Origin: Ignavibacteriales bacterium
Lineage (GTDB): Bacteria > Bacteroidota > Ignavibacteria > UBA10030
Direction: 5' to 3'
DNA: 48,010 nucleotides
Assembly (NCBI GenBank): GCA_016207415.1
Contig: JACQPT010000061.1
Span: 1 to 48,010 of the forward strand
Each line of letters begins with the position of its first letter. The stretch's first letter is position 1. Positions 14,737-27,446 of the stretch are shown piece after piece. Made by a program: the position numbers and the translations under genes. The notes under the pieces are model-generated. The model made no database searches. It was not told the origin of the DNA and saw only the letters and a program-made list of their open reading frames with translations.

Positions 14737-15159
14737 TTAACGGAAAATCTGGTACAACATCAGATAGATCACCACTCCGGTGACTGAAACATAGAGCCAC
14801 ACGGGGTACGTCCATCTTGCAATTCTTCGGTGAACTTCATAGTTGCCTTTCAGTCCGCGACGAAGTGTGATAATAGCGAGAGGAACAATGAGTGTGGCAA
14901 GGACCGTGTGGGACAGCAGGATCGCGAAATACACTGGCCTTACCCAACCCTCACCCTGAAATGGCTGCGAGCCATGGTGGTAGTGATAGATCAGGTAGGA
15001 TGTGAGGAACAAGCCTGAGAGGATAAACACTGTGATCATACTCTTTCGATGCGCGGGGATGTTTCCTTTTTTCATGAAGTGATGACCGATGACGAGAAAA
15101 GCTGCGCTGCAGGTGTTGAGGAAGGCGTTGAGGAGTGGTAAATCAGAAACGGAGATCAT
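14737..15159 (-). CDS. DUF420 family membrane protein (oxidase-associated)
   Basis: LNAFLN, H-x-K-x-M, FLTSYLIYH, SHTVLA, HRRIARWTYPVWLYVSVTG. Confidence 0.88.
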   Translation of the reverse strand: MISVSDLPLLNAFLNTCSAAFLVIGHHFMKKGNIPAHRKSMITVFILSGLFLTSYLIYHYHHGSQPFQGEGWVRPVYFAILLSHTVLATLIVPLAIITLRRGLKGNYEVHRRIARWTYPVWLYVSVTGVVIYLMLYQIFR

Positions 15160-16046
15160 TACACCTTATCGACTACCATCACGAGCATCAACGTGGGCAA
15201 GTACAGCAAGGACGAAAAGAAAATCCGACGCGAGTATCTATTGGCCAAGGCTTGATGATGCTGATTCAAAGTTGAGAGACGGAAAAGGATTGCATACCAA
15301 AGCAGTCCGAAGCTGAGCAAAAGAGCGGTGACCAGATACAAGCGGCCAGCCAAACCTATCCAGGAAACGCAAAGGCTGACCGCAAGCAATAGAGATGACG
15401 CCACGAGAATGTGAAGGCTGGTTCTCCTCCCCCATTCGTCGATAACGGGAAGCATCCTAAATCCCGCCCGCGCATAGTCTTTCTTATACATCCAGGCAAG
15501 GGACAGAAAGTGCGGAATCTGCCATACGAACAGAATGCCGAAAAGAACCCACGCGTCAACGGTGATTCCATTTCGTGCCGCCGCCCAGCCGACAAAGGTT
15601 GGTAGAGATCCCGGTATAGCGCCAACGAGGGTGTTCCACCACACAACCCGCTTCAGAGGCGTATAGAGAACCAGGTAGGTCACCAACGTCAACGCCGCAA
15701 AGAACGCAGTAAGCAAATTATTGAACGCGGCCAGCACAACAAGGCCTGCGATAGCGATCGAGTTTCCAAAAATCAAAGCCGCCAATGGAGAGATTCTTCC
15801 CGCAGGGAGAGGCCTGCGTTCAGTCCTTTTCATGAGGGCGTCGTATTTACGCTCGAAATACTCGTTCAGTGCTCCCGCCCCACCACCGACGAGAAGCGTT
15901 CCAAAAGCAGCCGAAGAAAGCCGGGTCGTGTCCACGCCGTCCGTGGAAGCAAGATAGAAAGCGCACACTGAGGTGAGAGTGGAGAGTCCAGTAAGCTCTG
16001 GTTTTATTAAATCTATATAACTTCTTATCTGAATGTAGCTTATCAT
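15159..16046 (-). CDS. ctaB: Heme o synthase (protoheme IX farnesyltransferase)
   Basis: DALMKRTERRPLPAG, YTPLKR, GAIPG, WQIPHF, DYARAG. Confidence 0.95.
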   Translation of the reverse strand: MISYIQIRSYIDLIKPELTGLSTLTSVCAFYLASTDGVDTTRLSSAAFGTLLVGGGAGALNEYFERKYDALMKRTERRPLPAGRISPLAALIFGNSIAIAGLVVLAAFNNLLTAFFAALTLVTYLVLYTPLKRVVWWNTLVGAIPGSLPTFVGWAAARNGITVDAWVLFGILFVWQIPHFLSLAWMYKKDYARAGFRMLPVIDEWGRRTSLHILVASSLLLAVSLCVSWIGLAGRLYLVTALLLSFGLLWYAILFRLSTLNQHHQALANRYSRRIFFSSLLYLPTLMLVMVVDKV

Positions 16047-16070
16047 GACTTCATAATGTCAATTATAGAA

Positions 16071-17096
16071 CTAAACTGTAGATTCTGCTGCGTCTGCGCT
16101 CAGCTCACGCTCCCTACGAGGATACCTTCCAGATCTCCTAACGATAAATACCGCCTGGACTGACACCATCAAAAGCAATGCTCCCAGAGACTGATGAGCC
16201 GTAGCAATTATCTCTGATTTCCTTGTCAAAACAATATATGCTCCCAAAACAAGCTGAACCGAAAGGCCGCCGAGAAGAAGAAAACTGAAACGCGTATAAA
16301 GAGTATCCAGTTTCCGAAGCGCCCAGAGCTTCAGTGATGTCACAATCAAAAAACACGTCACCACAAGAGCCCAGTAGCGATGGATGACATGCAGCGAAAC
16401 CTGCGAGGCGGTTATCGGCCCATCCGCATGCAGACGGATGTCTGTACGGATGAGTTGTTCGTTGTACCGAGCGATGTCTTCCGGGGATACGGAGGGAATA
16501 AGTTGTCCGTACGCGAGCGGGAAATCCGGAACGGCCAGCCCTGAGTGTGTGTGCCTCATAACGGCCCCAAGAATCAATTGGACCAGAACCACTCCCACCG
16601 TTCCAACGAAAAATGCCGAGGACGGCACGCTTGCCTCTTTTGCCTGTATCACCGAAGCTTCTCCATACCACCACCGTGATGTGAAGAGTGCGAGAGCGGA
16701 AACTGTGCAAAAAAATATCTGCGCCAATGTGGCATGGGTCGCGGACACCTCGGGCGGGAGCATCATCTTAACCGTTAATCCGCCCAGCAGTCCCTGAATA
16801 ATCACTCCAACAAGCGCAAGGACCGCAAGCTTGCGGACCCAGGCGCGTTTCTCAACACGCAGAAACCAAACCGTCAGGAAAACCGTCAAGAGGCCGACAA
16901 AGGATGCTATCATCCTGTGTCCATGCTCGTAAAAGATCCCTCCGACCATCGGCGGCATGAGCTTTCCGTACGACAAAGGCCAATCGGGAACCGCGAGGCC
17001 TGACCCCGTGCTCGTGACCATGCCTCCTGCAATAAGTAACAGGAATGTGCAGCATGCCGTGAACACTGTATATCGATGGAGTGACTTGTTATACAT
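16071..17096 (-). CDS. ctaA: Heme A synthase (COX15/CtaA)
   Basis: GGMVTSTGSGLAVPDWP, EHGHR, QGLLGG, conserved His in helices (ATH, IHR, TAHQ). Start placed at ATG 17096. Confidence 0.9.
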   Translation of the reverse strand: MYNKSLHRYTVFTACCTFLLLIAGGMVTSTGSGLAVPDWPLSYGKLMPPMVGGIFYEHGHRMIASFVGLLTVFLTVWFLRVEKRAWVRKLAVLALVGVIIQGLLGGLTVKMMLPPEVSATHATLAQIFFCTVSALALFTSRWWYGEASVIQAKEASVPSSAFFVGTVGVVLVQLILGAVMRHTHSGLAVPDFPLAYGQLIPSVSPEDIARYNEQLIRTDIRLHADGPITASQVSLHVIHRYWALVVTCFLIVTSLKLWALRKLDTLYTRFSFLLLGGLSVQLVLGAYIVLTRKSEIIATAHQSLGALLLMVSVQAVFIVRRSGRYPRRERELSADAAESTV

Positions 17097-17107
17097 AGTA
17101 TGAGAGT

Positions 17108-17145
17108 AAAAAAAGCGATGCCTTCCGTCGAGAGGAAGGCATCGC
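17108..17145 (-). terminator. Intrinsic terminator between coxB and ctaA
   Basis: Perfect 12-bp stem GCGATGCCTTCC (17115-17126) / GGAAGGCATCGC (17134-17145), 7-nt loop, followed by U7 on the minus strand (A7 at 17108-17114). Confidence 0.8.
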
Positions 17146-17169
17146 GCCGTCAAACTCACGCCATAAGGC

Positions 17170-18309
17170 TTATGGTTGCAGGTACGAAGCTTCCATCTTG
17201 AGCCAGGCGTCAAATTCTTCCGCGGACTCGACAATCATCGTCCCCCGCATACGGTAGTGGCCCAACCCACAAAGCTGCGCACAGGCAATTTCTGTCGGTG
17301 AAGCGAGCTCCACCATTACTAGGGTAAAGCCGTTTTCGAAGAGCGTAGGCACAACCGCGTCGCTGATCATGTCTCCCTTCCTTGCAATGACGGAACCATC
17401 TTTGGCAGTGTAGTCCTGACCGGCCACCTTTTCGAATGTCATTGCCACCGGCACCGCGACAAGTTTTATCGGATTGAATTCAGCGCCGCTTTCTGTCACG
17501 GCCTGAACGAGTTGCTCCTTGACAAAGGGAAGTACCCTCGTTCCTTTCGGAATGACGACCGATCCATCCTTCTGATTTACGATATCGTTGAGCGTTACAA
17601 AATCCAGATAGTTGAGCAAATCGTCGCGCTGGAAATCGAATTCAACTTCTTTTCCTATTTTGTACGTATACCTGAGCATTTCCCTGATTTCAGCCGTCGT
17701 TTTCGTAGGCACAAACCACACGGGGAAAACATCGCCAGGGATGGCATCTTGTTTCACTCGAAAAAACGGCAGGCTAAAACTGTGTATGACATCCTTGCTG
17801 CTTAGCCGGACGATAACAGGTTTGTTGACGGGCAGGTGGAACTGGTTAATGGTCGTGATGTCGTCCTTTGCGCTGGCATCGGAACGATCCAGTCCGAGCG
17901 GGTTCTCTGCGGACACGAGGGAAATATCCGTTCGGCCGAAAACCCCATCAGCACCGGGATAGTGGACGTTCCAGTTAAACTGTTCGCCCACCACTCGCAC
18001 GATCAATGCTTCCTTTTCCGAAGGGAAGGCGTTCACGCGTTTGGCCCACAACGGGAAAGCAAGGCCAATCAGGACCACGATCTCAAAAATGGCCACGCCC
18101 CCTTCCAGATAGTTCGACGCATGGCTTCTCAATCCCAAGTAATCAGCCTTAGGATTGCGCGAGCTCCTAAAACGCATTATGGTGAAAAGCAAGAATGTCC
18201 CCCACCCTACAAACAGAATCAACATAGCCCAATGCATCACGCTCGTCATGTTGTCGATTTCAGGCCCATGAGCCGACGCCACCACCGGAAAACTGAGGAA
18301 GTCAAACAT
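17170..18309 (-). CDS. coxB: Cytochrome c oxidase subunit II (CuA), with a large internal insertion
   Basis: Two N-terminal TM helices, EQFNW, SKDVIHSF, KQDAIPG and CuA motif CAQLCGLGHYRM. Confidence 0.93.
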   Translation of the reverse strand: MFDFLSFPVVASAHGPEIDNMTSVMHWAMLILFVGWGTFLLFTIMRFRSSRNPKADYLGLRSHASNYLEGGVAIFEIVVLIGLAFPLWAKRVNAFPSEKEALIVRVVGEQFNWNVHYPGADGVFGRTDISLVSAENPLGLDRSDASAKDDITTINQFHLPVNKPVIVRLSSKDVIHSFSLPFFRVKQDAIPGDVFPVWFVPTKTTAEIREMLRYTYKIGKEVEFDFQRDDLLNYLDFVTLNDIVNQKDGSVVIPKGTRVLPFVKEQLVQAVTESGAEFNPIKLVAVPVAMTFEKVAGQDYTAKDGSVIARKGDMISDAVVPTLFENGFTLVMVELASPTEIACAQLCGLGHYRMRGTMIVESAEEFDAWLKMEASYLQP

Positions 18310-18326
18310 GGATGAACGATCTCCTT

Positions 18327-18578
18327 TTAATTCAGACTTGGATAATCAAATGTTCCCTCAACGGTCATCTTCATTCGCTTTCTGAGGTAGACGAAAAAGG
18401 CGCCAAAAAGCGAAAGCAGTCCGCCGGTGATTCCCAGCAGAACGAGAACGGCCATATTCACGCTGTCGTTGGTTTTGCTGGCCTCGCCGGCTCCAAAGCA
18501 GACGGGACAACTCATTACCGCATCGGTGAAAGCAATCAGTGCAACCAGCGAAAAGCCAACCAACGCGAGTTTCTTCAT
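18327..18578 (-). CDS. Small exported/membrane protein with a CxxC motif (oxidase-associated)
   Basis: Strong RBS (GAGGGGAG), signal-peptide-like N-terminus, SCPVCFG, one C-terminal TM helix; in-operon position. Confidence 0.7.
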   Translation of the reverse strand: MKKLALVGFSLVALIAFTDAVMSCPVCFGAGEASKTNDSVNMAVLVLLGITGGLLSLFGAFFVYLRKRMKMTVEGTFDYPSLN

Positions 18579-18593: not shown

Positions 18594-18800
18594 TCACATA
18601 AAACTGATGTGTTTGAATTTTCGAAGAAAACGAACCCCATACACAATGAGCCCAATCCCCACCAACGCCGACGCGATTCCTCCGAGCATGTTTTCTCCAG
18701 ACTGTGATGCCCCGGTCCCAAGAAACAACCAAACACTAAAGCCAAACGCGCACAAGGTCGAGAGCGAGATAAAGAAAATATGGAAAAACTTGAGCGACAT
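18594..18800 (-). CDS. Small two-TM hypothetical protein
   Basis: MSLKFFHIFFI...; two hydrophobic helices; start overlaps the coxD stop (TAATG). Confidence 0.7.
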   Translation of the reverse strand: MSLKFFHIFFISLSTLCAFGFSVWLFLGTGASQSGENMLGGIASALVGIGLIVYGVRFLRKFKHISFM

Positions 18801-19105
18801 TAAGGCAATGCCACCTTATCGCTGAATGCGCCGACTGGCAAAAACATCAATCCTACAAAAAACACGACGGTCAAAACGAGCACTGCATAAATCAACTTCT
18901 TTTCAGAGATCAAATGCATGAAATAGCTCGCAACAAGCGAGCCTTTGATGACGGCGATGATCAGAGCAACGCTCACTGCCGCGACTGTGGAGAGGTGAAG
19001 CGTTGAGACCGCCACCGTCACAATGGTCAGTGCCAGGAGCACCACGAACACCATGATATATGTCCGAACGTGCTTCTTTATATCTTCTGCATGTGCTTCC
19101 GACAT
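18800..19105 (-). CDS. coxD: Cytochrome c oxidase subunit IV (prokaryotic COX4 family)
   Basis: YIMVFVVLLALT...IAVIKGSLVASYFMHL. Start placed at ATG 19105 with an AGGAGG RBS. Confidence 0.85.
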   Translation of the reverse strand: MSEAHAEDIKKHVRTYIMVFVVLLALTIVTVAVSTLHLSTVAAVSVALIIAVIKGSLVASYFMHLISEKKLIYAVLVLTVVFFVGLMFLPVGAFSDKVALP

Positions 19106-19115
19106 TTGGTCCTCC

Positions 19116-19706
19116 TTACAATAGATACAGGACGGGGAAAAGGAAAATCCACACCAGATCAACAAAGTGCCAGTAAAGCCCGGCAACCTCCACCCTATTC
19201 GTAAACCGCTCCGGCTCGGTCTTCCACATGTAACTTCCCGGTCCCCAGAGGTAGGTATTGAGCACAATTCCACCTATCACATGCAGGCCATGAAGCCCGG
19301 TGAGAGTGAAGTAGATGGCCAAAAACGTGTTGTAGCTGGGATAGTGGCCGATCTCAAACTTGTGTCCATACTCGAATGCCTTAACGACAAGAAATATGAG
19401 GGCACACAGGATCGTCAAGCCCATGTAGAGTTTATATTTTTTGAAATTGCTCATCTTCAACGAAGCCCAAGACATGACCATCGTGACGCTGGAAGAAATC
19501 AGGACCACCGTATTGAGCGTGGCGAGTGGGATATTCAGCTCTTCCCATCCATGGGGCCAGTGGTCCGCCCCCACTCTCAACAAAACGTAAGATGAGAAGA
19601 GTGCGCCGAAGAGCATCACCTCGGAAGCGAGAAACAACCAGACGCCAAGCTTGGCGTTAAAGAGTCCGGTATCTGAACGGAGTTGTACAGTGTAGGGAAT
19701 TTGCAT
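19116..19706 (-). CDS. coxC: Cytochrome c oxidase subunit III (short form)
   Basis: GVWLFLASEVMLFGALF, NTVVLISSS, TGLHGLHV, GLYWHFVDLVW. Confidence 0.95.
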   Translation of the reverse strand: MQIPYTVQLRSDTGLFNAKLGVWLFLASEVMLFGALFSSYVLLRVGADHWPHGWEELNIPLATLNTVVLISSSVTMVMSWASLKMSNFKKYKLYMGLTILCALIFLVVKAFEYGHKFEIGHYPSYNTFLAIYFTLTGLHGLHVIGGIVLNTYLWGPGSYMWKTEPERFTNRVEVAGLYWHFVDLVWIFLFPVLYLL

Positions 19707-19721: not shown

Positions 19722-21602
19722 TTAGTCGGCTTCGTTTTGAGGCGTATAATCCCTGGATTTCCCGGGGACGCTGTATTCGTACGGCCCACGATAAACTTCG
19801 GGTACTTTTATGAAGTTACCATGAGGGGGAGGCGTTGGTGCTGCCGACCACTCAAGTGTTGTGGCCTGCCAGGGGTTCTCGTTGACAGTCTCTCCTCGTC
19901 TTAAGCTCCAGAAAAAGTTAAAGATAAAGACGATCTGGAAGACTCCCAGAACCCAGGCTCCGATGGACATCACTTCATTCCACGGCAACACGCTCTGTGC
20001 GTGCGCGTATTGTTGTGCGCCGTCTGAAAGCCGCCTCGAAACTCCCGCAAACCCTTGTATGAACATCGGGAGGAAGACGATGTTGATGGAAACAAACGAC
20101 CCCCAGAAATGTATCTTTCCCATAACATCGCTCATCTTTCGTCCAGTCACCTTAGGATACCAGTAGTAAATACCGGCAAACAGGGCAAAGAGGGATCCCG
20201 GAGCGACTACATAGTGAAAATGTCCGATGACATAGTACGTGTCGTGAAGATGGATGTCCGTGGGAGCAAGGCCAAGAGGCAGTCCGGTGAGACCGCCAAT
20301 GCCAAACATCGGAAGGAAAGCGAGCGCGAACAACATCGGCGTTGTGAATCTAATCGAGCCGCCCCAGAGCGAAATAATCAGCGCCGTCAGAATAATCACG
20401 GACGGAATCGAAATGATCATCGTTGTCGTCTGGAAGAATGCGCTGATGACAGTCCCCATGCCTGTCAGGAACATATGGTGCGCCCACACGATGAAGGACA
20501 TGAATCCGAGAAAGATCACTGCGTAGACCAACGATTTGTAACCCCACAGAGGCTTGCGTGTATTGTTGGCGATTACTTCGCCAAGAATTCCCATGGCCGG
20601 CAGGATTAAGACGTACACTTCGGGATGAGCAAGGAACCAAAACAAATGCTGCCAAAGAATTGGATGACCGCCTCCGCTGACCTGAAGCGGCTGTCCGGCA
20701 ACAACCAGGCCACTGGGAAGAAAGAAGCTTGTTCCTGCCAGGCGGTCCATGAGCTGAAGGATGCCAGCGGCTTCCAGTGGCGGAAACGCAAGAAGCAGGA
20801 GGAACGAAGTCACAAACTGCGCCCAGACAAAAAACGGAAGGCGCATAAACGTCATCCCCTTCGCCCGCAACTGAATAATCGTCGTGATAAAGTTCACGGA
20901 GCCTAAAAGCGAAGAAGTAATCAGAAACACCATGCCGATGAGCCAGAAAGTCTGGCCTGTCGTTGCGGTATTTGCCAGGGGCGAATACGAAGTCCATCCC
21001 GAATTCGCAGCGCCGCCAGGAACAAAGAAGCTCACCAACATCACCACGCCGCCGACGAAGTACGACCAATAACTCGCTGCGTTAAGTTTGGGAAACGCCA
21101 TATCCGGCGCACCGATTTGTAGCGGTACCACGTAATTGCCGAACGCTCCCACAGCCAGCGGTACGACGCCGAGAAAAACCATGATCGTTCCGTGCATCGC
21201 TCCAAGCTGATTGTAGAATTCCGGCAACATGATGCCGCCTGGCATACGGTCTTCCCCCGAGGTCAAATAGGACACGAGAGCCGCCACCCCCAGGAAGAGG
21301 AGACCAACGAGCATACTCAGGGAAGGTTTGAACTTTGATACCAGCAGAATGACGATCCCTATGACAGCGATAGGAACGATGAAATACATTGCCGGGATGG
21401 GATAATTCGGATGGGCTAGCTGCCAGCGCATGAGCATCATCAACGTGAAGCCGAAGAACAAAAACAAAAGGGCTGAAATGCCGTACTGGAGTCCGATGAT
21501 TTTGTGGTCGATGGAGAAAATGTATTTTCTCCAAAAACCAAGTTCTTCGTGGTGAGCGTGAGCTCCAACATCATGTGGTGCAGTGGCAACGAGTTGGTCC
21601 AC
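19722..21602 (-). CDS. coxA: Heme-copper oxidase subunit I (A-family-like)
   Basis: DHKIIG, MHGTIM, PDMAFP, HPEVY, WAHHM, HDTYYVIGHFH, SRR. All six His ligands and the cross-link Tyr are present. Confidence 0.97.
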   Translation of the reverse strand: MDQLVATAPHDVGAHAHHEELGFWRKYIFSIDHKIIGLQYGISALLFLFFGFTLMMLMRWQLAHPNYPIPAMYFIVPIAVIGIVILLVSKFKPSLSMLVGLLFLGVAALVSYLTSGEDRMPGGIMLPEFYNQLGAMHGTIMVFLGVVPLAVGAFGNYVVPLQIGAPDMAFPKLNAASYWSYFVGGVVMLVSFFVPGGAANSGWTSYSPLANTATTGQTFWLIGMVFLITSSLLGSVNFITTIIQLRAKGMTFMRLPFFVWAQFVTSFLLLLAFPPLEAAGILQLMDRLAGTSFFLPSGLVVAGQPLQVSGGGHPILWQHLFWFLAHPEVYVLILPAMGILGEVIANNTRKPLWGYKSLVYAVIFLGFMSFIVWAHHMFLTGMGTVISAFFQTTTMIISIPSVIILTALIISLWGGSIRFTTPMLFALAFLPMFGIGGLTGLPLGLAPTDIHLHDTYYVIGHFHYVVAPGSLFALFAGIYYWYPKVTGRKMSDVMGKIHFWGSFVSINIVFLPMFIQGFAGVSRRLSDGAQQYAHAQSVLPWNEVMSIGAWVLGVFQIVFIFNFFWSLRRGETVNENPWQATTLEWSAAPTPPPHGNFIKVPEVYRGPYEYSVPGKSRDYTPQNEAD

Positions 21603-21635: not shown

Positions 21636-22325
21636 CTAACCGGCTTTGTAGGAGAAGTTCACCGTTGCTTTTCCCGTCGCATCCACCTTCACTTTCATCG
21701 TCTGGGTCCCGTATTTCTCGTGCCAGGCTTCGACAGTGTATTCACCTGCCGGAAGGTCTTTGATGACAAAAGACCCGTCGTCTCCAGTGACAGAATAAAA
21801 CGGATGACTGAAAACGCCGATGTAAGCACCCATCCAGGAATGCACTTCACATTTCACTTTGAACGGAGCTTCTGGTTTTGGAAAATTCTTTTTCATTGTG
21901 CCGGGTACAGGCTGTCCCTGATTGAATCCCTGATTGACTTTGGGCAGTGCATGCACGTTGTGTAGCGTGTTGTCGCTGTTTTTGACCTGGAGCTCCTGGC
22001 CGGCCATTACACCAAGGACATGTGGCTTATAAATGCAGCCTTTCTGGTCGAAAACAACCGGAGTTTTCGGTGTGTCGAATTTCTTCCCACCAATCCCATC
22101 TTTCACGTAGATGAGGACGTTTTTCAATGTGCCGTTCTTATTGACTACAAGCTCTTCACTTAAAACAGGTGCCTTGTGGGCCATGGCGCAGAATTTGTCG
22201 GCATCCATTCGGAGCCGCGCCGGGGCAGCCGGTTTTCCTTCGAACGAAACTTTCCCTGTGACATCACCCGCAACAACTGGTAGCGAGAGGAAAACGACCA
22301 TCACCGCCAAAACCGCCTTTTTCAT
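21636..22325 (-). CDS. Secreted cupredoxin-like protein with a carboxypeptidase-regulatory-like beta domain
   Basis: Signal peptide, strong AGGAG RBS, FDQKGC, HNVH and CEVHSWM (C-x2-H-x2-M), C-terminal GSFVIKDLPAGEYTVEAWHE. Confidence 0.75.
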   Translation of the reverse strand: MKKAVLAVMVVFLSLPVVAGDVTGKVSFEGKPAAPARLRMDADKFCAMAHKAPVLSEELVVNKNGTLKNVLIYVKDGIGGKKFDTPKTPVVFDQKGCIYKPHVLGVMAGQELQVKNSDNTLHNVHALPKVNQGFNQGQPVPGTMKKNFPKPEAPFKVKCEVHSWMGAYIGVFSHPFYSVTGDDGSFVIKDLPAGEYTVEAWHEKYGTQTMKVKVDATGKATVNFSYKAG

Positions 22326-22406: not shown

Positions 22407-25055
22407 TCATTTGCTTGCAACAGTGCCAGACCTTCTTCCCAAAATCCACACGTATGTGGAAAGAGCCTTTATTTGCTCCTCGTTACTGCCACCCAAGATC
22501 GTAGGATCCGGAGCCTCCTGACCTTCTGTGAAAAACGTAGGCATGCGCGTCCCTTGCTGCAGCTTTGACGGATCTCTTAGCCAATCGATGATCCATTCGG
22601 GTTTCAAGCGTGTATACGCCTTCGCGAGGTCGGGAGCCAGAGACTCCGCCGTCACACCCTCTGTGTTATTGCCCGTCGGATGGCATTTTGCACACTGGTA
22701 CACCTCATAGAGCTTTCTTCCCGGCGCGACGTATTTCTGGTCAACAGGCGTTGCCGCATAGTCACGAAGGACAAAATCCTGCTTTGACATTCCCAGAAAA
22801 TACCTTTGAATCTTGCCTATTTCAATGTCGGTAAGATGAAACGTGGGCATTCTGACATTCACCCAGGGCCGAATCGTCGTTGGATTACTCAGGAACGAGT
22901 ACAGCCACGGCTCCTGGACTTTTGCTCCCTGACTTTCGGGCAGCGGCGGAGGTCCCAGTGCAGCCTCCTCGTACAGTGAGACAGTGTACCCGCCGCGTTC
23001 TTCAAGCTGGTGGCATTGGACGCAATTGTACGTCATCGTCAGCCTGCGGCCTGCTTCAACATCCTGCATCCGCTTGTCGTATGCGCGTTGATAGCTTGGG
23101 AGGGGGACATCCTTCGTCATGCTGATGAGTAACAGTCGGATGAGCCTTATTTCTTCTTCGTTGAAGGTGAAGAGCGGCATTTTCTGAACGATGCGTTCTG
23201 TCTGGTACAGCCGGGGATTCTTGAATTTCCCGAACACCCAGCCTCTCCAGGTGTGCTTTACAGCCACCGTTCCGTCGGCATTCTCTCGATAGTCCAGGGT
23301 ATCATCTTCCGAAAGTTCATGCGTATCTCCAAAGTCCATCTGCTCGACTTTCTTCCGGCCAAAGTCGGAGAGCTCAACACTGACCTTTCCTTCATTCTCC
23401 ATTCCCTTGATCGAATGGCAACCTGCGCAACCGAATTCCCTGATGAGCCTGTCCCCTCTCGCAATTTTCTCAGCGTTGTTCAGATCCAGATTCGCGAGGG
23501 GGAATCTCCTGTCATCTTTAAGCGTCGTGAGATATGCGACGATATGTCTTGCTTCGACATCCGTAAGACGTAGGCTCGGCATGCGCGTTTCAGCGTTATA
23601 GTGGCGGGGGTTTCTCACCCAATCGAATATCCAATCGGGAGAAACCTTGCTGCCCACGCGAGTCAATTCGGGTGCGATATCAAAACTTGTCGCCCGTGCA
23701 TCTCTTACTCTTGTGGCGTTTCCTACGACGTGACAGGCCTGGCACCCGATGGTCTCGAAGAGCTGCTTCCCTTGAGCTGCACTGCCACCGACAAAGGATC
23801 CGCGGGGTCGCTCAAAAGAAAAACTCGATTGTTTGGCAACGCTGACGAGGTAGGCAGTGATCGCCTCCGCCTGGTCATCGCTGAACATGAAATTCGGCAT
23901 GCGCGTGTGCGCATTGTAGTCTTTCGGATTTCTCACCCATCGGAAGATCCAATCTGGGTGTACCTTAGCCGTCAGCGTGTTCAACGGTGGACCGATTTTC
24001 GGGAGGTCGGAAAACCCCTTGATTTCATGACAGCCGTAGCAGCCGGACTCGAATACTATTTGCTTCGCTGCGACGAACGGTTTTGCGTGTTTCAGGACGC
24101 TTTCATTGGTGTGGCAGGAGTTACACGTTGCATACACATCGTTACCACGCAGGATAGGAGTTTCCCAGTAATGGTCGTCCTCACCGTGGGCAAATCCGGC
24201 TGTAAGCGCCGGCCCCTGTCCACGGTGACACGGTGTGCATCCAAATGTCTCCGGATTATGCTTGGCGAGAAGCTCCGGAACCGGATGACTGGTGAACGGT
24301 TGCGGCGCCTCCGACATGAGCTCATCATTCCAGCCGGAGTGACACGTCTGGCAGCGGTCGATCCTCGCCTTAATCTCCTGGAATGGCGTTAATTCAAAAT
24401 CGTTCAACATGACCTGCCGCACTCCGATCGGAGCGTTTCGCATTTTCTCAGCTTTTGACCCATACGCTTCAGCTTCAGCAAACAGGCTTTGCAACTCGAT
24501 TTGAGCCTTCGCGAGAGCATCTTTGTACTTATTGACGACCTCATCCAGACCAGCGATTTTTTTCTCGAGCTCGGTCATTTCAGACAAATGTTTCGCTATT
24601 GCCGCCTCATGTTCGTCAACTTCTCTGCGGAATGGAGCGACATCCCTTCCTTCCAGTTTTGCTTTCTGCAACTGATAGTAAGCTGCATCCGACCGGCTCC
24701 GGGCAAATCGCCATTCTCTCGTCGCCAGGTCTAACCCGCTGCTCAGATGGTCTTTCTCGGACACGGCTTTCACATATTCTTCCGACGCCACCCCCTCCTC
24801 CGCGTTCTTTAGACGTGCCTGTAATTCAACTACTTGAGATGAATCTATTTCTTGCATCGAGAGGAGACGCAAGGAATCGAGTTTTTCGGCTGAAAGCTCG
24901 TGAAAGGTGGTCTGATATTCTTTCCAGGGTCGACGAGTCCTGACTTCATCCCACACAGACCACACTGTTCCCAGGAACAAGATTCCGCTGAAGAGAATGT
25001 AAAAAGCGGCGTAATTCCGGCTCTCTACTGGTGTCTTGGCTCGCTGTTTAAACAT
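22407..25055 (-). CDS. Membrane-anchored multiheme cytochrome c (8 CxxCH)
   Basis: N-terminal TM helix, long coiled coil, then CQTCH, CTPCH, CNSCH, CYGCH, CQACH, CAGCH, CVQCH, CAKCH. Confidence 0.92.
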   Translation of the reverse strand: MFKQRAKTPVESRNYAAFYILFSGILFLGTVWSVWDEVRTRRPWKEYQTTFHELSAEKLDSLRLLSMQEIDSSQVVELQARLKNAEEGVASEEYVKAVSEKDHLSSGLDLATREWRFARSRSDAAYYQLQKAKLEGRDVAPFRREVDEHEAAIAKHLSEMTELEKKIAGLDEVVNKYKDALAKAQIELQSLFAEAEAYGSKAEKMRNAPIGVRQVMLNDFELTPFQEIKARIDRCQTCHSGWNDELMSEAPQPFTSHPVPELLAKHNPETFGCTPCHRGQGPALTAGFAHGEDDHYWETPILRGNDVYATCNSCHTNESVLKHAKPFVAAKQIVFESGCYGCHEIKGFSDLPKIGPPLNTLTAKVHPDWIFRWVRNPKDYNAHTRMPNFMFSDDQAEAITAYLVSVAKQSSFSFERPRGSFVGGSAAQGKQLFETIGCQACHVVGNATRVRDARATSFDIAPELTRVGSKVSPDWIFDWVRNPRHYNAETRMPSLRLTDVEARHIVAYLTTLKDDRRFPLANLDLNNAEKIARGDRLIREFGCAGCHSIKGMENEGKVSVELSDFGRKKVEQMDFGDTHELSEDDTLDYRENADGTVAVKHTWRGWVFGKFKNPRLYQTERIVQKMPLFTFNEEEIRLIRLLLISMTKDVPLPSYQRAYDKRMQDVEAGRRLTMTYNCVQCHQLEERGGYTVSLYEEAALGPPPLPESQGAKVQEPWLYSFLSNPTTIRPWVNVRMPTFHLTDIEIGKIQRYFLGMSKQDFVLRDYAATPVDQKYVAPGRKLYEVYQCAKCHPTGNNTEGVTAESLAPDLAKAYTRLKPEWIIDWLRDPSKLQQGTRMPTFFTEGQEAPDPTILGGSNEEQIKALSTYVWILGRRSGTVASK

Positions 25056-25080
25056 TATACTGACAGGTTCTTCAAGGTTG

Positions 25081-25989
25081 CTAGACGTTAAACCAGGGAG
25101 TGACCCAAACGTATTTCACAGGGTTCATTCCAAGAAATGTGGGTATCAAACGTAGGAGAATCTTCACAAGTAGCCCCATCATCGTCAAAAACAGGAACGA
25201 AACTATCGCGTATCGGACCAGCCCCAGCTTCTTCATGAAGTCTGTATTCCTCTTTCTCAGCCAATACAGGGGTCCAAGCGAGTAGAAGCCAAAGACGCAC
25301 ACCGCGCCAAAAATGAAAGCGGCCGGGTTCAATGAACCGTCCGGCATACGGGTGGCGATATTGAACGGCCACATTTCAGAAAAGTCGACGTTCGTCAAGA
25401 CGGCAACAAAGTGAGGATCCCATTTCTCTCCCGGCATGAAGAAATTCCAGCCCGGACCGCGGAGAAACGTTCCTATAAAAATGAGAAGACACCAGAGAAT
25501 AAGAAAACCAAAAGAAAATACCAGGACTGCGAACTTGCGCTCCTTGAACGTATAATATCCGTTACCCTTCGGGTTGATGTCGATGTATGGAATCGCCATC
25601 AAACCAACGATGATGAGACTCGGCAGCACAACACCGGCAATCCATGGATCGAAGTACACCAGCATTTCCTGCAAACCGAGGAAATACCAGGGGGCTTTCG
25701 AAGGGTTTGGCGTTAGGGCTCTGTTGGCTGGCTCTTCAAGCGGGGCGTCCAGCGTGATCGACCAAATTACCAACACCGCCATTACGGCAATGGTGGCAAG
25801 AAACTCAACGCGCACAAGATACGGCCACACCTGGACTTTGTCGTCCAACGTCGCCTCGACCGGGTATCCCTGCGCATCATTCTTCTTTGCCTTCGTCCAG
25901 GCGAACCAGGTAAAGAAGATGACGGAGAAAAGCAGGAAAACGATCGGAAGATTATCCGGCTTGGTGAGAATCTCGAAGAATTGTTGCAT
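25081..25989 (-). CDS. petD: Cytochrome b subunit IV-like (C-terminal half of split cytochrome b)
   Basis: VWP, DAPLEEPAN, TPNPSKAPWYFLGLQE (PEWY-equivalent region), PYID, RGPGW; directly follows the b6-like gene. Confidence 0.8.
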   Translation of the reverse strand: MQQFFEILTKPDNLPIVFLLFSVIFFTWFAWTKAKKNDAQGYPVEATLDDKVQVWPYLVRVEFLATIAVMAVLVIWSITLDAPLEEPANRALTPNPSKAPWYFLGLQEMLVYFDPWIAGVVLPSLIIVGLMAIPYIDINPKGNGYYTFKERKFAVLVFSFGFLILWCLLIFIGTFLRGPGWNFFMPGEKWDPHFVAVLTNVDFSEMWPFNIATRMPDGSLNPAAFIFGAVCVFGFYSLGPLYWLRKRNTDFMKKLGLVRYAIVSFLFLTMMGLLVKILLRLIPTFLGMNPVKYVWVTPWFNV

Positions 25990-26013
25990 GCAGTGTTTGG
26001 CTGGGGAGCGGTC

Positions 26014-26781
26014 TTATGTTTTCTTTGGCGTTTCCGGACCTGAAATTCCTCCGTCTTTTCGCACACGCCAGAAATGCACAGCCATAAAGATCGCCGCAAT
26101 AATAGGGAGGAAAATGCAATGGCCAACATAAAATCTCAGGAGCGTCGGCGGACCAACTTCGGTGCCGCCAAGAAGGACAAAGCGGACGTCATTGTCCGGC
26201 ATCATGCCCAGCTCGGGTCCAAATGGGCCCTCGTGTCCCAGCAACGGAGTCGCGCGAGCCATGTTCGTCCCAACAGTGACCGCCCAGATTGCAAGCTGGT
26301 CCCACGGCAGAAGGTAACCCGAAAAGCTCAACAGAAGCGTGAGCACGAGAAGGATCACGCCGACGACCCAGTTAAATTGTCTTGGCGGCTTGTACGAACC
26401 CGTGAGGAAAACCCGGAACATGTGAAGCATCACCGTGAGAACCATCGCGTGAGCGGCCCATCGGTGCATGTTGCGAATGAGCGGGCCGAAGGGGACATCA
26501 TTCATCAAATACTTCATGTCCTCGTACGCGTATTGTGCCGTCGGTCGGTAGTAGAACATAAGGATAATGCCGGTAATGGTGAGGACAAGAAAAAGAAGAA
26601 AAGTTATTCCTCCCATGCCCCACGTGTAGCCGATGTTTGTTGCGTGTCGTGGAACGCGAACAGGATGCAAATGGAGGAAAACGTTGTCGACAATCTGAAG
26701 CGCACGATTCCGTTGTGTGTCCTGGTACGAGTGACGGAAGATCGATTTGTAGACTTCAGTTTTCTTGAACGCCTCTAGCAT
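26014..26781 (-). CDS. petB: Cytochrome b6-like (N-terminal half of split cytochrome b)
   Basis: RNMHRWAAH...LHMFRV (H-x13-H), SGYLLPWDQ, FYVGH...VH (H-x14-H, b6-type spacing). Start placed at ATG 26781. Confidence 0.92.
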   Translation of the reverse strand: MLEAFKKTEVYKSIFRHSYQDTQRNRALQIVDNVFLHLHPVRVPRHATNIGYTWGMGGITFLLFLVLTITGIILMFYYRPTAQYAYEDMKYLMNDVPFGPLIRNMHRWAAHAMVLTVMLHMFRVFLTGSYKPPRQFNWVVGVILLVLTLLLSFSGYLLPWDQLAIWAVTVGTNMARATPLLGHEGPFGPELGMMPDNDVRFVLLGGTEVGPPTLLRFYVGHCIFLPIIAAIFMAVHFWRVRKDGGISGPETPKKT

Positions 26782-26789
26782 ACTGTCTC

Positions 26790-27446
26790 CTAACCTTGAA
26801 AGGGCAAGAAGGCGCCGGGTTTGGTCCAATCGCCTTTTTCATAGATGAACTTAATGCTCCGGTCGATTTCAATCTGACCGTCGTCGGTGAAGGTGATGAG
26901 CGCGCGTTCCAGCGGGCGGGGCGCAGGTCCTTCAAAGTTAATGCCCGTCCTGTAGAAACCGCTGCCGTGGCATGGACACTTAAACTTGTTGTCTGACCCC
27001 AGCCACCGAGGCGTGCAACCCAGGTGAGTGCAAATCGAAATGAGTGCGTAAAAGCCCCCTTTTTCCCGGACAATCCAGACTCTTTTCTCTTCTTTGAACT
27101 TCTCGCTTACTTCGCCGACGACAAAATCCGAGGGGAAACCGGCCTTGAATTTTGGCGGCTGTTCAAACAGTACGCGCGGAAACATAAAACGAAGTGCTCC
27201 GATGGTCGACGTGACGATAAAGCCAAAAAACCCCAGCCAGCCGGCGACAGAAAGCACATTCCTTCGGTTCATTCGCCATATTCCGGGGTCTTCCTCGGGA
27301 GGACGATCCTGTTTTGCTTTTCGCGGCAGAGGGACAGGGCTGATCTGCGTTCCGGAAGGCCTAGGCGCCCCTGCCGTGGGTGCGGCGGGTGCTGTAGGCG
27401 TCAGTGCTTGCGGCGCGGCAGCTTCCTTTGCTACCTGGTCAGCCAT
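26790..27446 (-). CDS. petC: Rieske 2Fe-2S subunit
   Basis: CTHLGC and CPCHGS boxes; Tat-like NRRNVL before the TM helix; Pro/Ala-rich N-terminal extension. Confidence 0.94.
   Translation of the reverse strand: MADQVAKEAAAPQALTPTAPAAPTAGAPRPSGTQISPVPLPRKAKQDRPPEEDPGIWRMNRRNVLSVAGWLGFFGFIVTSTIGALRFMFPRVLFEQPPKFKAGFPSDFVVGEVSEKFKEEKRVWIVREKGGFYALISICTHLGCTPRWLGSDNKFKCPCHGSGFYRTGINFEGPAPRPLERALITFTDDGQIEIDRSIKFIYEKGDWTKPGAFLPFQG

Follow-up and report, generated by a model that had tools for sequence, protein, structure and literature searches.

The coxA gene of the window (the whole stretch of DNA analysed, 48,010 nucleotides) encodes what is, judging from its sequence, a natural and selected A-type oxidase subunit I without the lysine of the K-channel. 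What is new lies on the partner subunit: a glutamate within the second transmembrane helix (TM2) of CoxB, Glu76, which strictly co-occurs with the loss of the lysine in the aligned sequences. The predicted enzyme is a functional A1-type cytochrome oxidase that contains haem A and belongs to a widespread clade of bacteria; its active site and D-channel are conventional. Its K-path may have been rebuilt with Glu76 of subunit II in place of the lysine, a reading to which we give not quite an even chance.

CoxA has the COX1 fold and matches PF00115 (COX1) at 447 bits (cut-off 34.8). Its best sequence matches among PDB chains are A-family subunit I chains (phmmer, E about 1e-118), and its AF2 model has a mean pLDDT of 88.9 and a pTM of 0.90. 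Residues 129-602 align with residues 86-548 of P. denitrificans 1ar1_A and 94-556 of R. sphaeroides 1m56_A, with zero gaps from helix VI to helix VIII. Identity to the canonical A1 aa3 enzymes (P. denitrificans 1ar1/3hb3, R. sphaeroides 1m56) is about 44% over 474 residues. The features of CoxA are:

19722-21602, minus strand: coxA, A1-type haem-copper oxidase subunit I, 626 aa (PF00115 and PDB-chain matches).
20367-20432, minus strand: helix VIII, the K-channel helix, residues 391-412, with T394, S398, S401, I404 and A407 (ungapped alignment and codons).
20391-20393, minus strand: Ile404 (codon ATT), at the position of K354 in P. denitrificans and K362 in R. sphaeroides (alignment and codon check).
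20400-20411, minus strand: Ser401 (20400-20402), at the T351/T359 position, and Ser398, a clade-specific extra serine one turn above.
20580-20582, minus strand: Gly341, where P. denitrificans has S291 of helix VI (PDB-chain alignment and codon check).
[quoted passage not shown]
20772-20774, minus strand: Glu277 in helix V (PPLEAA), a buried acid specific to the clade (clade alignment and codon check).
21081-21137, minus strand: D-channel entrance, N156, D167 and N174 (alignment and codons).
21264-21395, minus strand: two additional helices inserted into the helix I-II loop at residues about 70-113 (AF2 model).

In helix VIII, the CoxA segment 'tmiisipsviiltal' aligns without gaps with 'tmtiavptgikvfsw' of P. 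denitrificans and 'tmviavptgikifsw' of R. sphaeroides. A preliminary description, made from the letters of the window, had reported that the K-channel Lys is replaced by Ile, the preceding Thr by Ser and the helix VI Ser by Gly; alignment to the two model enzymes and the codons confirm all three. Compared with the A-family K-channel set of Sousa/Pereira (K354, T351, S291, Y280), the enzyme has I404, S401, G341 and Y330, retaining only the tyrosine and a conservative Thr-to-Ser change. The lower K-pathway is altered at three positions, where the Lys has become Ile404 and the equivalents of G360 and S365 are Val402 and Ala407. The other residues reported to be intact, namely the D-channel Asp and asparagines and the Glu and Tyr of HPEVY, are indeed present as D167, N156, N174, E328 and Y330.

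The His ligands of haem a, haem a3 and CuB (H137, H326, H375, H376, H461, H463) match the reference ligands and are invariant in a 40-sequence alignment. Y330 within HPEVY is the helix VI Tyr of the His-Tyr cofactor that marks oxygen reductases, and its cross-link is predicted. D167, N156, N174 and E328, together with N237, S177 and S229/S230 read off the PDB-chain alignment, correspond to the A1 D-channel residues D124, N113, N131, N199, S134, S193 and E278 of P. denitrificans (PMC3084760). The D-channel, which B-family enzymes lack, and the Ile rather than Thr at the K position set the enzyme apart from the B family. In ba3 oxidases of that family the entrance of the K-path is a Glu of subunit II. 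The K-path analogue of T. thermophilus ba3 has no Lys and is lined by Thr, Ser and Tyr (PMC3084760 table 2); by comparison, position 404 is hydrophobic in the window enzyme and subunit II carries an extra intramembrane acid. The insert is modelled as helices at 71-88 and 95-113 (block pLDDT 85-92, AF2). It occurs in 82 of 117 measurable close homologs and is absent from P0121.

The substitution is shared by a whole clade. None of the 120 closest CoxA homologs has a Lys at the K position (118 Ile, 2 Val), nor does any of the 44 clade loci (38 Ile, 5 Leu, 1 Val), as against 125 of the 125 other A-family CoxA in the same alignment. A non-Lys residue in every one of these homologs and clade loci argues against chance or damage and against the copy-specific change that, alongside other signs of decay, had been named as grounds for dismissing the observation. 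In a tree of 34 rows calculated without the helix VIII columns, the clade receives an SH-like support of 100. It covers at least eight phylum labels; members occur in about a fifth of the sampled Acidobacteriota genomes and also in Verrucomicrobiota, Planctomycetota, Ignavibacteria and others, and an Elusimicrobia MAG and Verrucomicrobiota MAGs fall inside the window's clade. CoxA is the sole PF00115 match in the window's genome (89% complete), and the clade enzyme is likewise the only one in the relatives G002, G029 and G038 (97-100% complete).

Within the clade, E328 and Y330 are each found at 44 of 44 loci, the D-channel Asp at 42 and each Asn at 43. Ser401 is conserved at 43 of 44 loci and Ser398 at all 44, a position occupied in the Lys group by A (82), G (31) or S (12). 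The helix VI S291 position is more variable (A 28, G 9, C 3, S 2, T 2). Glu277 is present at 41 of 44 clade loci and in 0 of 125 Lys-group rows, which have A, T, S or L there. A scan for clade-specific residues found zero Lys, Arg or His in CoxA. The compensating Lys that the preliminary description regarded as a possible refutation is thus absent from CoxA, while a candidate compensating acid does exist on CoxB, whose features are:

17170-18309, minus strand: coxB, subunit II, 379 aa, two TM helices and a CuA cupredoxin domain that contains a long insert (PF00116).
18103-18105, minus strand: CoxB Glu69, equivalent to R. sphaeroides E101, the canonical Glu at the K-channel entrance (aligned to 1m56_B and in both multiple alignments).
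18082-18084, minus strand: CoxB Glu76 ('IFEIV'), intramembrane, in TM2, seven residues after Glu69 at the R. sphaeroides P108 position; proposed stand-in for the Lys.

The CuA ligands of CoxB (H176, C343, C347, H351, M354) are invariant, and the CuA bridging Glu position is occupied by Gln345. The Glu69 position holds 117 E and 2 D among 120 close homologs, and 23 E and 2 D among 29 clade CoxB. Glu76 is present in all 119 aligned close homologs and in 29 of 29 CoxB paired with a clade CoxA, versus 0 of 98 Lys-group CoxB, which have P (77), T (15), A (3) or one each of V, S and F there. As K loss and Glu76 belong to one clade, and hence to a single evolutionary event, these counts reflect conservation and not independent correlation. 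Both acids singled out in the preliminary description, CoxA E277 and CoxB E76, are real, and the extra glutamates and the loss of the Lys do fall together in one clade. TM2 is ungapped between Glu69 and Glu76 in both multiple alignments. When CoxB is aligned pairwise by phmmer with chain B of P. denitrificans, TM2 is shifted by three residues with no identities; this alignment conflicts with the R. sphaeroides alignment and with the two multiple alignments, which agree with each other, and was set aside in their favour.

A model of the CoxA-CoxB complex obtains an ipSAE of 0.83 versus 0.00 for the best control; 58 of 80 solved complexes, but 2 of 110 mismatched pairs, attain the mark used for this score. 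Three runs share at least 95% of the contacts, with a partner pLDDT of 80 or more. As CoxA and CoxB are a textbook pair, this good result may reflect memory of solved oxidases. In the model, CoxB residues 65, 68-69, 72-73, 76 and 79-80 lie on the side facing CoxA, and CoxA residues 398-399, 402-403 and 405-407 touch CoxB; residue 404 is absent from the listed contacts. Seven helical residues correspond to a rise of about 10.5 Å, which would place Glu76, two helical turns above Glu69, at about the depth of the Lys amine. The passages of PMC9687966 that give distances put the waters near E101 about 19-23 Å from the Y288 C-alpha and those at K362 about 10-13 Å, a gap of about 9-10 Å.

In the rebuilt path, protons for the binuclear centre would enter through Glu69 of subunit II and the new Asn347 of CoxA and pass to Glu76. 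From there they would follow Ser401, Ser398 and Thr394, with waters, to Tyr330, the acid of subunit II taking over the role of the Lys of subunit I. Selection still acting on Glu69 and an upper ladder that is both kept and reinforced (S401 in 43/44, the new S398 in 44/44) suggest that the K-path is still in use. What we infer for Glu76, beyond a conservation and co-occurrence read from the sequences and a CoxA-facing side predicted by the model, is proton conduction. A buried Glu76 could alternatively serve in packing, lipid or cation binding, or assembly. Among the three options originally offered for the enzyme, an alternative proton route agrees best with the retained Glu69, the upper Ser/Thr ladder and the clade-invariant Glu76, and an oxidase relying on its D-channel alone is a real rival.

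According to this rival explanation, the K-path no longer conducts, every proton, chemical or pumped, travels from D167 to E328, and Glu76 of subunit II has a structural role unconnected with it. In model enzymes most protons are delivered by the D-channel, which is fully intact here, and the lower K-channel has become hydrophobic through Ile404, Val402 and Ala407. The same has already been proposed, in passages of bioRxiv 10.1101/2020.03.01.968255, for A-family oxidases without the Lys in acidophilic iron oxidisers. We nevertheless regard it as the less likely reading, since it leaves unexplained both the conservation of Glu69 and of the Ser ladder (S401 and the new S398) and the presence of an invariant intramembrane acid. 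Other K-less lineages also speak against it. A metagenome scan with alignment A3 yielded 80 loci, four of them K-less, a number too small to judge an independent origin. At four loci of another K-less lineage the entrance Glu is replaced (K, A, S, L) and the +7 position is L, L, I or P; loss of the entrance Glu in 4/4 loci suggests that a truly abandoned channel looks different from that of the window clade.

The sister subclade (P0123, P0125 and P0130; locus L022) goes further. It has also lost the D-channel Asp and Asn while keeping E328, Y330 and S398, and cannot use the D-channel entrance. These enzymes would therefore need another proton input. Glu76 is retained at L022, the one locus from which the combination of Glu76 with a missing D-channel is known. 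A search of 301 Acidobacteriota genomes with P0125 never gave a best identity above 61%; the loci checked were ordinary clade members keeping the D-channel (motif in 17 of 19, the other two without a regex match). A broader proposal can be put forward tentatively, although we rather doubt that it holds in full: an invariant acid on TM2 of subunit II would replace the K-pathway base across subunits in a large, multi-phylum A-type clade and, in the D-less sister lineage, would be the sole proton input. Such an A-family enzyme would have become, by convergence, single-channelled like those of the B and C families.

A second rival, following the classification of Degli Esposti et al., replaces the K-path by a C-family-like 'KC' channel of helix VI/VII residues. 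Supplementary tables 1 and 3 of PMC8239418 indeed label similar A1 enzymes of Elusimicrobia, Calescamantes and Methylacidiphilaceae 'KC-channel', and Ser369, six residues ahead of the HH pair, is invariant in alignment A1. However, many Lys-containing enzymes are listed with the same Ser in the PMC8239418 table, the residue scan found zero clade-specific Tyr or His in helix VI or VII, and the mapping of the four KC columns onto CoxA is uncertain. We consider such a channel improbable.

Loss of the Lys in the A family is not in itself new, since K-less enzymes, including an A1 group with the same pattern, were described by Degli Esposti et al. in 2020 and 2021, and the preliminary description overstated its novelty. 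The relevant passages and tables of these studies (bioRxiv 10.1101/2020.03.01.968255; PMC8239418) report A-family oxidases that have Ile, Leu, Val or Met instead of the Lys and keep HPEVY and the D-channel. The A1 'KC' rows of PMC8239418 table 3 have I/L for K, S for T and A/G/S for S291, and E78 of COX2 is often kept. The residue tallies of the window clade match that tabulated pattern (K354 to I/L, T351 to S, S291 to A/G/S, HPEVY kept), a likeness by residues alone. In the acidophile K-less enzymes covered there, including the Acidithiobacillus rus-operon oxidase, COX2 E78 is lost too, whereas the window clade retains it. E78 is the only COX2 residue listed in the PMC8239418 tables, and the text passages and three supplementary tables of Degli Esposti et al., within the open-access literature searched, contain no mention of a second TM2 Glu in subunit II. 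The same open-access search found no other papers on natural K-less A-family oxidases.

The oxidase genes are arranged in the order coxA-coxC-coxIV-coxB and are accompanied by genes for haem A synthesis and a bc-type complex:

15159-17234, minus strand: ctaB (15159-16046, haem O synthase) and ctaA (16071-about 17100, haem A synthase; PF01040, PF02628).
18327-18578, minus strand: 83-aa membrane protein with a CPVC motif, between coxIV and coxB.
18800-19105, minus strand: coxIV-like small subunit (PF03626); the listed ORF is longer and overlaps coxC, and an internal ATG was taken as the start.
19116-19706, minus strand: coxC, short subunit III, 196 aa (PF00510, profile positions 77-255 of 258).
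21636-22325, minus strand: 229-aa secreted protein that carries a C-x2-H-x2-M motif and, at its C-terminal end, a CarboxypepD_reg-like domain.
22407-27446, minus strand: upstream of coxA, a bc-type complex with an 882-aa cytochrome c (eight CxxCH), a petD-like subunit, a cytochrome b and a Rieske protein.

The 83-aa protein has zero Pfam or NCBIfam matches; a homolog occupies the same place at 12 of 33 clade loci. The 229-aa protein, with a weak match to the type-1 copper domain 5fc9_A (E = 0.38) and no NCBIfam match, is possibly a blue-copper electron carrier. The window enzyme thus shares with canonical aa3 oxidases the His ligands, the Glu and Tyr of HPEVY, the D-channel, a CuA subunit II with its entrance Glu, subunit III and haem A synthesis genes. 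It differs from them by Ile404, Ser401 and Gly341 and by the new S398, N347, E277 and Q283 in CoxA; by Glu76 for the TM2 Pro and Gln345 for the CuA/Mg-site Glu in CoxB; and by its gene order, the two-helix insert after helix I and its scores below the NCBIfam equivalog cut-offs (CoxA 587.2 bits against 670.75 for CtaD_CoxA, TIGR02891; CoxB 115.1 against 147.7 for TIGR02866).

The third option raised at the outset, an altered chemistry with the enzyme acting mainly as an NO or peroxide reductase, is very improbable. Nothing specific favours it, slow NO reduction being possible for A-family oxidases in general (PMC11214002). Against it stand the conserved Tyr, which NOR families lack (PMC11214002), the three CuB His, haem ligands, CuA site and E328, the intact D-channel, the ctaA and ctaB genes in the operon and the status of the enzyme as sole haem-copper oxidase detected in several near-complete genomes. 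A pseudogene or a decaying, non-functional copy is virtually excluded by the open frame, the 72-100% identity of the 120 closest homologs, the conserved operon partners and the sole PF00115 match.

Clade genes are often named 'cbb3-type'. Such names, together with scores below the CtaD and CoxB equivalog cut-offs, may lead to errors when the metabolism of abundant bacteria of soil and groundwater is reconstructed. In textbook A-type oxidases the K-channel Lys is viewed as essential, and gating and charge-compensation models of active-site reduction rest on it. Here a large natural clade manages without it and has, on another subunit, a single candidate substitute that is strictly conserved. 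The two positions form a concrete residue pair for transplant or mutation in R. sphaeroides or P. denitrificans, by which one could ask whether the channel requires a base, is satisfied with any protonatable group or works with neither. If the path through Glu76 is real, the Lys would not be mechanistically required, and a Glu at P108 of R. sphaeroides subunit II should at least partly rescue a K362 mutant.

CoxA belongs to the A family of haem-copper oxidases. Its top matches among all PDB chains (phmmer) are the A-family subunits I 1ar1_A of P. denitrificans and 1m56_A of R. sphaeroides (E ~1e-118), and the alignment to both runs from helix VI to helix VIII with zero gaps. Helix VIII (TMIISIPSVIILTAL) is thereby aligned over tmtiavptgikvfsw in P. 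denitrificans and tmviavptgikifsw in R. sphaeroides.

CoxA and its K-channel positions (residues assigned by alignment and codon check)
19722-21602, minus strand: coxA, ORF of 626 aa, COX1 family (PF00115, 447 bits)
20391-20393, minus strand: Ile404 (ATT), position of K354 (P. denitrificans) / K362 (R. sphaeroides)
20400-20402, minus strand: Ser401, position of T351 / T359
20580-20582, minus strand: Gly341, position of the helix VI S291

CoxA retains all six His ligands, E328 and Y330 in helix VI, and D167, N156 and N174 of the D-channel. The ungapped alignment and the codons thus bear out, at its stated coordinates, the preliminary description, which had read the K-channel Lys as Ile, the preceding Thr as Ser and the helix VI Ser as Gly, with the D-channel and the HPEVY Glu and Tyr intact. 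The new acidic residues that it announced in both subunits also exist (E277 in CoxA, E76 in CoxB).

The loss of the Lys is shared by all close relatives. Among the 120 closest CoxA database homologs (72-100% identity; Ignavibacteria, Bacteroidota or Kapabacteria MAGs where the source is named), the K position is occupied by Ile in 118 and Val in 2, and never by Lys. Scanning the GTDB species genomes with a clade alignment gave 80 loci, and genomes of the order to which the window belongs contributed 11 more; in the 44 clade loci of both scans combined, position 404 is Ile (38), Leu (5) or Val (1), while the other 125 A-family CoxA of the same alignment (the Lys group) all carry Lys. In a FastTree tree computed with the helix VIII columns removed, the window falls in a clade of 34 rows, every one non-Lys (SH-like support 100). 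By record title, its members belong to Acidobacteriota (mostly Vicinamibacteria), Verrucomicrobiota, Planctomycetota, Neomarinimicrobiota, Elusimicrobiota, Hydrogenedentota and Ignavibacteriota; two further labels, Bifidobacteriaceae and Enterobacteriaceae 'binchicken' MAGs, look doubtful. Of 301 sampled Acidobacteriota genomes, 69 give a match at E <=1e-120 (66 of 298 after removal of three flagged as unpublished), and 17 of the 19 loci checked carry the Ile motif, the other 2 falling outside the regex used. This enzyme is the sole PF00115 match in the window's genome (89% complete), which also encodes a cytochrome bd, and in those of three relatives (G002, G029 and G038; 97-100% complete). 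With Lys absent from 120/120 homologs and 44/44 clade loci, the change is not, as had been envisaged, peculiar to one copy showing signs of decay; decay of the oxidase gene is excluded, and the distribution points to a selected, clade-wide state. Many clade CoxA (P0003, P0005, P0026 and others) bear the database name 'cbb3-type cytochrome c oxidase subunit I', and many clade CoxB that of 'hypothetical protein', probably because they score under the TIGR02891 and TIGR02866 cut-offs.

The A family is described as having two conserved channels (PMC11214002; PMC3084760). However, natural K-less members are already in print, so that the loss which headed the preliminary description falls within a known variation. 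In the accessible parts of the preprint 10.1101/2020.03.01.968255, COX1 of acidophilic iron oxidisers has residues such as Ile at K354, and COX2 E78 is substituted too. The portions available of its published version (PMC8239418) record many K-less lineages, including an A1 'KC channel' group (the label given there to an alternative proton path) from Elusimicrobia, Calescamantes and Methylacidiphilaceae. According to the same portions, including supplementary tables, this group has I/L for the Lys, S for T351 and A/G/S for S291, often with COX2 E78 retained, which is the residue pattern of the window's clade. Among the query's 100 closest full-length representatives, at least four further lineages lack the Lys (P0155, P0177, P0190-P0193, P0163-P0202 and others). 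One (13 rows, mostly subunit I+III fusions) has Gln, His or Ala at the K position; another (12 rows) has I, L, M, V or A, with Phe at the Thr position in most.

The coxA gene is part of a minus-strand operon in the order Rieske protein, cytochrome b, petD-like subunit, 882-aa cytochrome c, 229-aa secreted protein, coxA, short coxC, coxIV, 83-aa CPVC membrane protein, coxB, ctaA and ctaB. Its genes make up a complete bc-to-aa3 chain including haem A synthesis. The Rieske/cytochrome b complex (22407-27446) has a split petD-like subunit, and cytochrome c1 is replaced by the 882-aa cytochrome c, in which eight CxxCH motifs occur; the petD-like and cytochrome c proteins show weak sub-threshold matches to ExtQ and ExtS (selenite/tellurite reduction operon). 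The 229-aa secreted protein (21636-22325) has the motif C-x2-H-x2-M (CEVHSWM) and ends in a CarboxypepD_reg-like domain; an NCBIfam search gave no family. It adjoins coxA in many loci, of K-less and Lys-containing oxidases alike, and may be a copper electron carrier. The 83-aa protein (18327-18578, between coxIV and coxB) gave no family match either; 12 of 33 clade loci, mainly from Vicinamibacteria, have a homolog at this place. The coxB gene lies downstream of coxA in 24/29 clade loci, but upstream in 104/104 Lys-containing loci with a CoxB.

When each CoxA was matched with its neighbouring CoxB, a second acidic residue on TM2, seven positions after the canonical K-entrance Glu, was found in 29/29 clade CoxB (Glu69 in YLEGG and Glu76 in IFEIV in the window). 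It occurs in none of the 98 CoxB of Lys-containing partners, where Pro (77) and Thr (15) predominate, beside Ala (3) and single cases of Val, Ser and Phe. Lys loss and the extra CoxB Glu therefore occur together in one clade, a co-occurrence the preliminary description had proposed to check. In the 120 CoxB homologs nearest to the window's, Glu76 is found in all 119 aligned rows (one is gapped), and the residue at position 69 is E (117) or D (2). The R. sphaeroides chain B counterparts of Glu69 and Glu76 are E101 and P108. Aligned pairwise, P. denitrificans chain B is three residues out of step with zero identities, and the register was taken from the R. sphaeroides alignment and two independent, concordant multiple alignments. 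Glu69 is preceded by a positively charged loop (46-68) and followed by ~20 hydrophobic residues, which places it at the N-side boundary and Glu76 within the membrane. No description of an invariant subunit-II Glu tracking Lys loss was encountered in the literature searched, whose reach stopped short of Supplementary Figure 7 of PMC8239418 and a cited 2020 BBA paper; this association appears to be new.

Other clade-specific changes in CoxA and CoxB cluster around the same region as the Lys loss.

Clade-specific residues of CoxA and CoxB (count or frequency in the clade; usual residues in the Lys group)
CoxA S398: 44/44; A or G
CoxA V402: 0.95; G or A
CoxA N347 and T348, N-side end of helix VI: 0.95 and 0.93; F, and S or A
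CoxA E277 (20772-20774) and Q283 (20754-20756), helix V: 0.93 and 0.98; A or T, and L
CoxB H26, M29 and W36, TM1 (18232-18234 and neighbours): 0.93, 0.93 and 0.97; L or F, T, C or A, and V
CoxB Q345 (17275-17277), CuA/Mg-site position: 1.00; E

In helix V, E277 is a buried Glu with Q283 six residues on. Gln345 lies between the two CuA cysteines in 29/29 clade CoxB, against Glu in 80/100 Lys-group CoxB; in model enzymes this Glu also ligates the Mg/Mn ion. The CoxB cupredoxin domain has a long insert (~205-335; window ~17320-17700) of variable length, homologs ranging from 314 to 457 aa in total. In CoxA, the loop joining helices I and II contains an insert of two extra predicted TM helices (~70-113; window 21264-21395; pLDDT 85-92), which brings the predicted structure to 14 helices. 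Of 117 close homologs in which it could be measured, 82 have the insert; P0121, a more distant clade representative, lacks it. The 'extra TM' variants in the accessible parts of PMC8239418 are N-terminal, unlike this one.

In an α-helix, seven residues correspond to a rise of ~10.5 Å and a return to nearly the same face. Molecular dynamics water sites lie ~19-23 Å (near E101) and ~10-13 Å (at K362) from the Y288 Cα in the accessible part of PMC9687966, distances that put the Lys ~9-10 Å above the entrance Glu. A complex predicted from CoxA and CoxB residues 1-120 reached an ipSAE of 0.83 (best control 0.00; the benchmark mark is met by 58/80 solved complexes and 2/110 mismatched pairs), with contacts agreeing at >=95% between runs and partner pLDDT >=80. 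This pass may reflect solved oxidases, CoxA and CoxB being a textbook pair. The CoxB residues facing CoxA are 65, 68-69, 72-73, 76, 79-80 and 83-85, and helix VIII touches CoxB through 398-399, 402-403, 405-407 and 409-410; residue 404 is not among the CoxA interface residues given by the model. The model thus predicts Glu76 on the face of TM2 turned towards CoxA, level with the residues on either side of 404, and its proximity to this position is plausible. In the same model, the H-x2-M of CoxB TM1 packs on the clade-specific P431 and P442 of CoxA helix IX, which may form a co-evolved interface or a metal site.

The best reading of these sequences is a rebuilt K-path, the alternative proton route among the interpretations first offered. 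In this path, protons taken up at Glu69(II) and Asn347 would be handed on to Glu76(II) and continue through Ser401, Ser398 and Thr394 with waters to Tyr330, beside a D-channel operating as usual. A serious rival is an enzyme relying on the D-channel only, as the literature has proposed for other oxidases without the Lys; selection still acting on the entrance Glu and on the upper Ser ladder, however, favours the rebuilt path over plain channel loss. So does the other K-less lineage examined (4 loci), which has neither the entrance Glu nor the +7 acid. A third point in its favour is a sister subclade (P0123, P0125, P0130 and locus L022) in which Asp and Asn of the D-channel are gone besides the Lys, but E328 and Y330 of HPEVY and S398 remain; L022 also retains Glu76, and its D-less, K-less enzyme is the sole PF00115 match of its genome. 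P0123, P0125 and P0130 have a C-terminal extension resembling subunit III. Against the rebuilt K-path, the association of Glu76 with Lys loss amounts to a single evolutionary event. Altered chemistry, also put forward initially, is unlikely. On the whole, the initial interpretation is borne out in part. Beyond the known loss of the Lys, Glu76 of subunit II offers a directly testable candidate.
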